NCBI GenBank assembly: GCA_017938425.1
Contig: JAGBBQ010000033.1
Span: 9,649 to 73,648 of the forward strand
DNA from: Clostridia bacterium
GTDB taxonomy: Bacteria > Bacillota > Clostridia > Oscillospirales > CAG-272
Length of the DNA: 64,000 nucleotides
Direction of reading: 5' to 3'
The notes below the pieces were generated by a model. The model was not told the DNA's origin. It ran no database searches and saw only the letters and a list, made by a program, of their open reading frames with translations. This document shows positions 4,482 through 4,640 of the stretch, piece after piece (positions within the stretch are counted from its first letter, which is position 1; each line of letters begins with the position of its first letter). Made by a program: the position numbers and the translations under genes.

Positions 4482-4574
4482 CTTCGTTCTCCTTCTCAAC
4501 GTTGATTCGTGGTGAACGTACACCACCTTTCGGATCTGAATGGTATCGGTTATCCGACACCATATGCCCGGGAA

Positions 4575-4640
4575 AATGGTGGTATATCGAAACACCACCA
4601 TTGCCCCGGTGAATGGTGGTAATTGGCCGTACCACCATTC
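4575..4640. repeat. Two adjacent hairpins built from the same arm sequence (AATGGTGGT / ACCACCATT)
   Basis: Hairpin 1 is AATGGTGGT (4575-4583) with ACCACCATT (4594-4602). Hairpin 2 is GAATGGTGGTA (4611-4621) with TACCACCATTC (4630-4640). Degenerate copies (ACACCACC, GAATGGTAT) lie at 4519-4555. Confidence 0.85.

Follow-up and report, generated by a model that had tools for sequence, protein, structure and literature searches.

The window, i.e. the whole 64-kb stretch of contig JAGBBQ010000033.1 that we analysed, carries an integrated rolling-circle element whose credible genes, between about 1.5 and 11.7 kb, lie on the minus strand, with a single convincing gene on the opposite strand. In order of transcription, a tyrosine integrase (10742-11680) is followed by an SSB (10178-10576), a Rep_trans initiator (8912-10090), three membrane or secreted orphan proteins and then small basic proteins, the 71-aa zinc-ribbon protein ZnR71 (4650-4865), the 126-aa orphan p126 (4101-4481), a second zinc-ribbon protein (3884-4117), a 35-aa TM protein (3764-3871) and an NTPase of 761 aa (1489-3774) that combines four N-terminal TM helices with a P-loop. 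The GC content is 40-42% at 4-8 kb versus about 54% in the remaining window. Searches with the NTPase returned no relative in Pfam, NCBIfam, PADLOC, PHROG or the PDB and no viral fold relative; no Pfam Zot family was matched, and only the P-loop could be aligned with Zot. Its family nevertheless comprises at least 339 protein clusters in gut metagenomes, all unannotated. An IMG/VR scan returned none of its members and the phage GenBank collection a single one, on a "Bacteriophage sp." scaffold that lacks ZnR71. The relatives exchange both the type of Rep (Rep_trans versus REP_ORF2-G2P) and the position of its gene. Clostridia of the human and the ruminant gut commonly carry elements of this family, which is missing from viral databases; its proteins are almost all orphans, and our literature search found no description of it.

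Several further features were noted along the element. The 35-aa TM gene (MKRALYFFLFLAMLLVIAYVIFTGHQISEVSAFEG), which is unlisted, has its own ribosome-binding site and overlaps the start of the NTPase gene; nearly all relatives have an equivalent small hydrophobic ORF 5′ of the NTPase, and the protein could be a coat-like or membrane partner protein. Upstream of ZnR71, a minus-strand gene (5002-5232) encodes an extremely basic, K/R/S-rich protein of 76 aa with no homologues in the libraries searched, which could condense or bind the nucleic acid of the element. The one convincing plus-strand gene (5276-5566) encodes a 96-aa TM protein with counterparts called in L011, L012 and L018. Its promoter (5256-5284) agrees with the consensus at 11/12 positions, its terminator lies at 5555-5574 (plus strand), and a promoter-like site on the minus strand (5295-5268), facing away from it, would drive transcription of the ZnR71 block. 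On the minus strand just past the NTPase stop codon, a GC hairpin (1420-1444) is followed by a near-consensus promoter (TTGACA-17-TAGAAT, 1409-1381) and, beyond it, by two hairpins, the second of which (1298-1338) has TTTTTTATT on its 3′ side; the region 1289-1444 is thus a candidate for a small RNA or leader of about 85 nt. Although the ORF overlapping it (1056-1499) is probably not a real gene, conservation of the region extends to L001, L004 and L008. Other long inverted repeats occupy the remaining non-coding gaps of the element at 10581-10628 (between the integrase and SSB genes, 21-nt arms), 11691-11747 (beside the integrase, 24-nt arms) and 912-960 (18-nt AT-rich arms), and are better placed for an origin or att sites than the hairpin array described below. 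No att direct repeats of 12 nt or more were found between the element ends.

ZnR71 and p126 are separated by 168 bp. An earlier note on this DNA had described the gap as a non-coding cis element and the ORFs overlapping it as probably spurious, and both judgements are borne out. It had also allowed for translation of the region as part of a long ORF (4101-4643), against which the evidence is now clear. First, p126 starts at a TTG codon (4479-4481) behind a strong ribosome-binding site (AAGGAGAA, 4487-4494), an arrangement that is repeated in L011. Second, L011, in which ZnR71 is 96% and p126 98% identical to the proteins of the window, has exactly one 37-nt unit fewer, a difference that would shift the reading frame. 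Third, the same block precedes unrelated genes in other elements. p126 itself, which matched no family in Pfam, PADLOC and the other libraries searched, is the first gene of a hypervariable cargo segment that runs from the hairpins to the NTPase operon, and the genes found at its position in relatives are unrelated to it.

The gap holds four hairpins (4509-4640) with a 37-nt period, all derived from the word AATGGTG(G/T). The twin hairpins reported previously, AATGGTGGT-N10-ACCACCATT at 4575-4602 and GAATGGTGGTA-N8-TACCACCATTC at 4611-4640, lie exactly where they had been placed, and what had been described as degenerate copies of their words proved to be two further hairpins, at 4540-4563 (ATGGTATCGG/CCGACACCAT) and 4509-4526 (GTGGTG/CACCAC). 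The units of the array are only about 60-73% alike. The exact 9-mer AATGGTGGT occurs five times in the window, four of them within the array. Folding of 4482-4660 gave z = -5.8 for the plus strand as DNA and z = -6.6 for the minus strand as RNA, in both cases with 0 of 200 shuffles reaching the same value. Both the clustering of the 9-mer and these z-scores place the array beyond chance.

Read on the minus strand, the module opens with a lead-in (4641-4652, TAGATCCGCGTG) made of the ZnR71 stop codon and nine further nucleotides, which takes the form TAGATCCACGTCG in L001, L012, L015, L017 and L020. Hairpin 1, or type 1 (4611-4640), pairs GAATGGTGGTA with TACCACCATTC over 11 bp around the loop CGGCCAAT and is followed by no T-run. 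Its RNA fold has a dG of -15.6 kcal/mol, it matches our one-hairpin covariance model R1 with 47.8 bits, and L022 and L012 have the same 28-nt core down to the loop. Hairpin 2, or type 2 (4575-4602), pairs AATGGTGGTGT with ATACCACCATT around the loop TTCGAT through 11 pairs, one of them a sense-strand G.U, and matches R1 with 40.2 bits. An outer stem (CCGGGG/CCCGG) lengthens its fold to about 4566-4610, TTTT stands directly 3′ of it on the sense strand (plus-strand AAAA at 4573-4576), and its TCGA-centred loop is common to L015, L020, L006, L001, L017 and L118. Hairpin 3 (4540-4563; ATGGTGTCGG/ATAA/CCGATACCAT) has 10 pairs, one of which is a G.U on the sense strand only, and its RNA fold reaches -14.2 kcal/mol in sense versus -10.4 in antisense. 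Hairpin 4 (4509-4526; GTGGTG/TACGTT/CACCAC) is homologous to a GTGGTGT...ACACGT block 5′ of the ribosome-binding site in relatives. The module ends at the ribosome-binding site and TTG start of p126. A search of the hairpin region against Rfam gave no family at E<=1, and the window contains neither tRNA genes nor targets complementary to the loops that could serve as kissing partners.

Tandem repeats of 34-45 nt upstream of a toxin gene are also the hallmark of ToxI-like antitoxins of type III toxin-antitoxin systems. The array resembles them in that a small orphan gene directly follows its four units of about 37 nt, with a weak terminator-like hairpin in between. However, p126 is unrelated to ToxN, CptN or TenpN and is replaced in relatives, and the repeats stay with ZnR71. 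We rejected this possibility, given units no more than 73% alike, a p126 without Pfam or PADLOC match and a downstream gene that is not conserved.

To place the array in a wider context, relatives were collected at 10 genomic loci through the NTPase and at 15 metagenomic loci through ZnR71 homologues. Three loci of a distant lineage (L118-L120) from a metagenome codon-pattern scan and the GenBank "Bacteriophage sp." scaffold were added. A first metagenome scan with the ZnR alignment and IMG/VR scans with ZnR71 and with the ZnR codon pattern returned nothing. In every close homologue of ZnR71 recovered (at least 45% identity; about 16 elements), the module starts 0-24 nt past the ZnR71 stop codon. 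Its AATGGTGGTA...TACCACCATT hairpins, one or two in number, come first and are succeeded by one or two of the (A)TGGTGT type, and the number of hairpins ranges from one to four across elements. It ends at the ribosome-binding site of the next gene or, where ZnR71 converges with the NTPase gene (L025, L118-L120), at a separate canonical terminator. The gene on its 3′ side varies freely: p126, p182, p100, an HTH, DUF3850 or DUF4313 gene, or the convergent NTPase gene (L025, L119). R1, searched over 262 kb comprising the window and the loci, matched at module positions only. No hairpin was found in the seven relatives that have the NTPase and lack ZnR71 (L002, L004, L005, L007, L009, L010 and L121, the last also searched with R1). 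The hairpin is present in all close ZnR71 loci and absent in 7/7 loci without ZnR71.

The distant loci L118-L120 have some peculiarities of their own. The arm (TTCACCATT) is present a third time within the 3′-terminal part of the ZnR reading frame (e.g. L120, 8205-8400), so that ribosomes on the final codons would be in competition with one of the two alternative hairpins. Two canonical GC-rich terminators lie 3′ of the hairpins. Other kinds of cassette were considered for the module and set aside: an integron attC-like cassette or a MITE with inverted ends (no integron features, no other copies) and a folded attP of the dif/XerCD type (no similarity).

The earlier note had proposed comparing homologous elements for conservation of the arms with compensatory changes. 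The first part of this comparison turned out clearly positive, the repeats being conserved in about 16 elements. The loops fall into two recurrent classes, type 1 (CGGCCAAT) and type 2 (xTCGAx). Type 1 precedes type 2 in the twin elements (the window, L012, L001 and L017); type 2 stands alone in the single-hairpin L011, L015, L016, L020, L006 and L118, and type 1 alone in L021 and L022. It follows that the twin arrangement is old and that one or the other copy may disappear. At conserved codons of ZnR71, third-position identity between the window and L022, L020, L021 and L015 is 0.35, 0.46, 0.52 and 0.62, respectively. The 28-nt hairpin is nonetheless identical at 28/28 positions in L022, and the arms at 20/20 positions in L015, L020 and L021. 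As the hairpin stays identical even where silent sites of the ZnR genes have reached saturation, its primary sequence is under strong selection.

Such conservation bears directly on whether the module has any dedicated function. It might be an ordinary 3′-end stem-loop, an expandable palindromic repeat at a mosaic junction, kept alike by boundary exchange through recombination and by homogenisation of the repeats through gene conversion. The module does sit exactly where gene content switches, with a conserved block that reaches the ribosome-binding site of unrelated genes, and copy number shifts by whole 37-nt units, as between L011 and the window. Moreover, an IMG/VR scan for AATGGTGGT-N6-12-ACCACCATT gave 92 matches, none of them in related elements, and many of these hairpins with A/T runs are ordinary AT-rich terminators common in unrelated phages. 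However, 28/28 identity that includes the loop, across elements with saturated silent sites, is hard to reconcile with this explanation, as are the order of type 1 and type 2, which is fixed in both ZnR71 sub-lineages, and the both-side pair changes kept in divergent members. Other copies are also missing from the 262 kb of related DNA searched and from the 64-kb window, which indicates that the repeat does not spread as a mobile element. We therefore regard a module without dedicated function as very unlikely.

The evidence for pairing is more mixed. The most divergent members retain the stem despite changes in both of its arms: L118 combines GT>AA with AC>TT (giving AATGGTGAA/TTCACCATT), L023 G>A with C>T (giving ATAGTGG/CCACTAT) and L018 G>T with C>A (giving AATTGTGG/CCACAATT), and in L025 a T-A pair is flipped to A-T (giving GGTGGA/TCCACC). 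The distance between arms varies from 4 to 10 nt. Formal covariation tests were not significant, however, shuffles reaching the observed scores, because the arms hardly vary. Two pairing registers, paired in 93% and 90% of cells, were recovered, but the 93% are due mostly to invariant columns, with few double changes, in the most divergent members only. RNAfold prefers a shifted or nested register in L001, L015, L017 and L022. Since all arms are one word, both the left arm before a right arm and the one after it can serve as its partner, which yields two mutually exclusive folds. A right-arm C>G variant (CCACGATT) that breaks a pair recurs in L006, L001, L017, L021, L022 and hairpin 4 of the window, and a purely structural model does not predict it. 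With the covariation tests null and this variant present, the case for structure rests on the few divergent members and on the wobble bias. Single-sided changes create about 10 sense-strand G.T pairs (about 8 independent) versus one independent A.C, a bias with p of about 0.02 in a sign test, uncorrected for shared ancestry or mutational bias. The sense folds are also usually more stable than the antisense folds. The G.T wobbles therefore favour folding of the sense strand.

Part of the same evidence can be read in terms of double-stranded DNA, as an array of inverted-repeat sites, operator or centromere-like, for ZnR71 or another protein of the element. The arms are near-invariant words in alternating orientation with a fixed 37-bp period, and repeated protein-binding words would explain their invariance as well as a sense-strand fold does. 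Furthermore, the arms within an element share one variant (3/3 copies of TTCACCATT/AATGGTGAA in L118), the pair-breaking C>G variant is tolerated, formal covariation is absent, and presence of the array tracks a small zinc-binding protein. Centromere arrays of the sopC/parS type lie just downstream of the gene for their binding protein, and the module resembles them in that short inverted repeats recur in tandem, one per unit of about 40 bp, directly behind the gene for a small protein. Such an array would alternatively recall the sites for activators of the Ogr/Delta type, which lie upstream of a late operon. Unlike sopC/parS, the module has no ParA/ParM partner, counts only 1-4 units, and shows strand-biased wobble and variable arm spacing. 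Half-site spacing varies indeed, the palindromes being mostly of 28 nt but of 26 nt in L118 and 23 nt in L023 and L024, and the spacers are conserved in two classes (CGGCCAAT and xTCGAx), which recognition of half-sites would not need. The 8:1 bias of G.T over A.C favours a single strand, no ParA-like partner or promoter adjoining the sites was found, and in L025 and L118-L120 the site lies at a convergent gene end, where there is nothing to regulate. Altogether, we consider double-stranded sites improbable.

If a single strand is the active form, it may be DNA or RNA. The earlier note had proposed an origin, a packaging signal or a transfer site, recognised by Rep, by the NTPase or by a flanking zinc-ribbon protein. 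Recognition by Rep as a double-strand origin is contradicted by the distribution of Rep types. In the window, the Rep is of the Rep_trans kind and a G2P Rep is lacking, while the same twin hairpins stand beside a REP_ORF2-G2P Rep in L012 and closely related ones accompany REP_ORF2-G2P Reps in L015, L017, L020 and L021; L005, which has a Rep_trans homologue, has no hairpin. A site read by the NTPase is likewise at odds with the seven NTPase-bearing relatives that have neither the hairpin nor ZnR71. The same absence speaks against a family-wide packaging signal, for which, in addition, we find several short stems and not one long one. Finally, the clt sites of actinomycete conjugation combine an FtsK-like TraB translocase with direct 8-bp TRS repeats; the NTPase has no FtsK/TraB match in Pfam, and the words of the array are inverted and not direct repeats, which leaves no ground for a clt site. 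From these comparisons the module emerges as a conserved, non-coding element tied to one small zinc-ribbon gene, independent of Rep type, dispensable for the NTPase lineage and absent from the relatives that lack ZnR71.

A more restricted role in ssDNA was weighed as well, in which only the displaced sense strand would fold, into a single-strand origin that primes the complementary strand or into an export or packaging tag, read by a host enzyme or by ZnR71. The element encodes a rolling-circle Rep (Rep_trans, G2P-type in relatives) and an SSB, and several adjacent, orientation-biased hairpins are gathered within about 130-170 nt. Their sequence and loops are kept regardless of Rep type, as expected of a single-strand origin read by the host, and ZnR homologues also occur in a Zot-type, inovirus-like prophage. 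In Ff filamentous phages, intergenic hairpins form the packaging signal and the minus-strand origin, and the module recalls them as a polarity-specific hairpin cluster that begins right after a gene end, in one gap of a compact, unidirectionally transcribed rolling-circle element. In contrast to the Ff region, its stems are much shorter, it is accessory and not beside the Rep gene, and the NTPase is not demonstrably a Zot/pI protein. Stems of 6-11 bp are indeed too short for a promoter mimic or for an Ff-type packaging hairpin of about 30 bp, and absence from seven NTPase-bearing relatives, including L005, shows that the module is not the general origin or packaging signal of the family. Single-strand origins of the ssoA type have conserved RS-B and CS-6 (TAGCGT) motifs in a long folded region; the module lacks this pair, no TAGCG(T/A) being present on either strand of 4482-4660 on inspection. 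T-runs and the position at the stop codon would have no rationale in ssDNA. A signal in ssDNA is thus, in our view, unlikely.

T-runs lead to the question of transcription. Hairpins 1-3, with 10-11 bp, loops of 4-8 nt and dG values of -14 to -16 kcal/mol, have the stems of Rho-independent terminators (at least 5 bp with G-C, loop of 3-8 nt). Taking at least 5 T within the 8 nt immediately 3′ of the stem as a U-tract, we found one in 3 of about 14 elements (L006, L018 and L024, with 7, 7 and 5 T) and nearly one in L023. Counted after the last hairpin, 7 T are present in L006 and L018, which have weak stems, 5 in L020, L023 and L024, 4 in the window, L011, L012 and L021, and 2-3 elsewhere. A terminator scan of the minus strand over 3700-5700 returned no terminator, the only run being TTTT after hairpin 2. 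The earlier statement that T-runs are missing therefore holds under the strict definition and in the scan, but overlooks this TTTT on the minus strand. Its corollary that the hairpins are not ordinary terminators is fair for the window and does not extend to L006, L018, L023 and L024, with runs of 5-7 T. T-runs in orthologous hairpins keep a role in transcription a candidate. In L118-L120 and L025, a separate GC-rich canonical terminator lies 3′ of the hairpin, which means that termination is not its sole job there. No sigma70-like promoter was detected on the minus strand between the hairpins and the NTPase gene, the nearest being the site that precedes the ZnR71 block (5295-5268); the genes beyond the hairpins therefore depend on transcription through them. 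A possible promoter inside the module (TGGTGT-N17-TTACAC) was discarded, being too near the ribosome-binding site and having a poor -10.

On this basis, we tentatively favour, at somewhat below even chances, a sense-strand element, most likely RNA, that would act as a leaky terminator or attenuator at the module boundary and is probably bound by a factor, for which ZnR71 is the prime candidate. The module, fixed to the 3′ end of the ZnR71 gene, would act as a single strand of minus-strand polarity. In the transcript, it would form an intercistronic or 3′-UTR array of one to four stem-loops, serving as a weak, tunable terminator or attenuator and as a 3′ stabiliser between an upstream block (membrane proteins to ZnR71) and a downstream block (variable cargo, the small TM protein and the NTPase). 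Its two exclusive folds would behave like those of an attenuator and could be selected by a bound factor. That RNA and not ssDNA is active, that the module attenuates and that ZnR71 binds it are inferences; plus-strand ssDNA has the same polarity, and sequence alone cannot separate the two.

Compared with known systems, the module resembles terminators and attenuators by its stem-loops right after a gene, on the transcribed strand, with a U-run after the last one in many relatives. Furthermore, trp-type attenuators oppose 1:2/3:4 to 2:3 pairing, and the module shares this logic through four equivalent segments, two conserved exclusive folds and the dependence of downstream genes on read-through. 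It differs from both by U-tracts that are short or absent in the window and about half of the relatives, most of its hairpins not being canonical terminators, and from attenuators by the lack of a leader-peptide logic, since the distance from the stop codon to the first arm varies from 0 to 24 nt. Finally, its stems and loops are conserved like a protein-binding site, far above what a stem-loop needs, which implies a sequence-specific reader.

As ZnR71 is co-inherited with the hairpins, it is the candidate for this factor. The zinc-ribbon reader had been one of the possibilities raised in the earlier note and fares best, ZnR71 being the sole candidate listed there whose presence tracks the hairpins and probably their reader. 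The protein has a CxxC...CxxC pattern and an invariant GWAISKDY..CYCP. Its AlphaFold2 model (pLDDT 74) gave no significant fold match in the PDB, and its sequence weakly matches phrog_926 (function unknown) and hypothetical proteins of Klebsiella phages. One may go further and propose ZnR71 and the AATGGTGG hairpins as a cognate pair, in which the protein would read the stem-loops, in RNA or plus-strand ssDNA, choose the register and gate read-through into the cargo/NTPase block; we hold this more specific proposal to be rather doubtful. Small phage proteins with an adjacent cognate RNA hairpin are well known (Com and the mom operator of Mu, N and boxB of lambda, the MS2 coat protein and its operator). 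The likeness lies in a small zinc-binding or basic protein gene beside a conserved hairpin, upstream of the next cistron and co-inherited with it. On the other hand, ZnR71 showed no likeness to Com, N or coat proteins in sequence or fold, the hairpins stand clear of the downstream ribosome-binding site, and a distant ZnR homologue has no hairpin.

The hairpins are among the few strongly conserved non-coding features of this integrated rolling-circle family. Should the pair be real, it would add a new member to the small zinc ribbons that bind nucleic acids, one whose target is defined, and would offer a handle on the timing of export or assembly gene expression in these elements, i.e. a self-contained regulatory cassette in a widespread unannotated family. 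If the module is only a leaky terminator, the finding is ordinary. We regard its novelty as moderate: in a family of elements that is itself uncharacterised, it varies the theme of the attenuator or of the small protein with a hairpin beside its gene.

The distant ZnR homologue (39% identity) was found in L122, a Zot-type prophage (weak Zot match, PF05707), in which no hairpin follows it; this weakens the notion of an obligatory link between ZnR and hairpin. It also shows that this zinc ribbon turns up repeatedly as a small protein in inovirus-like elements of Clostridia. In L122, the ZnR gene and a gene for a protein of 377 aa lie between inverted repeats of about 65 nt (4915-4975 and 6890-6960) that are separated by some 2 kb, and a tRNA 3′-end fragment (about 7210-7260) adjoins the integrase.
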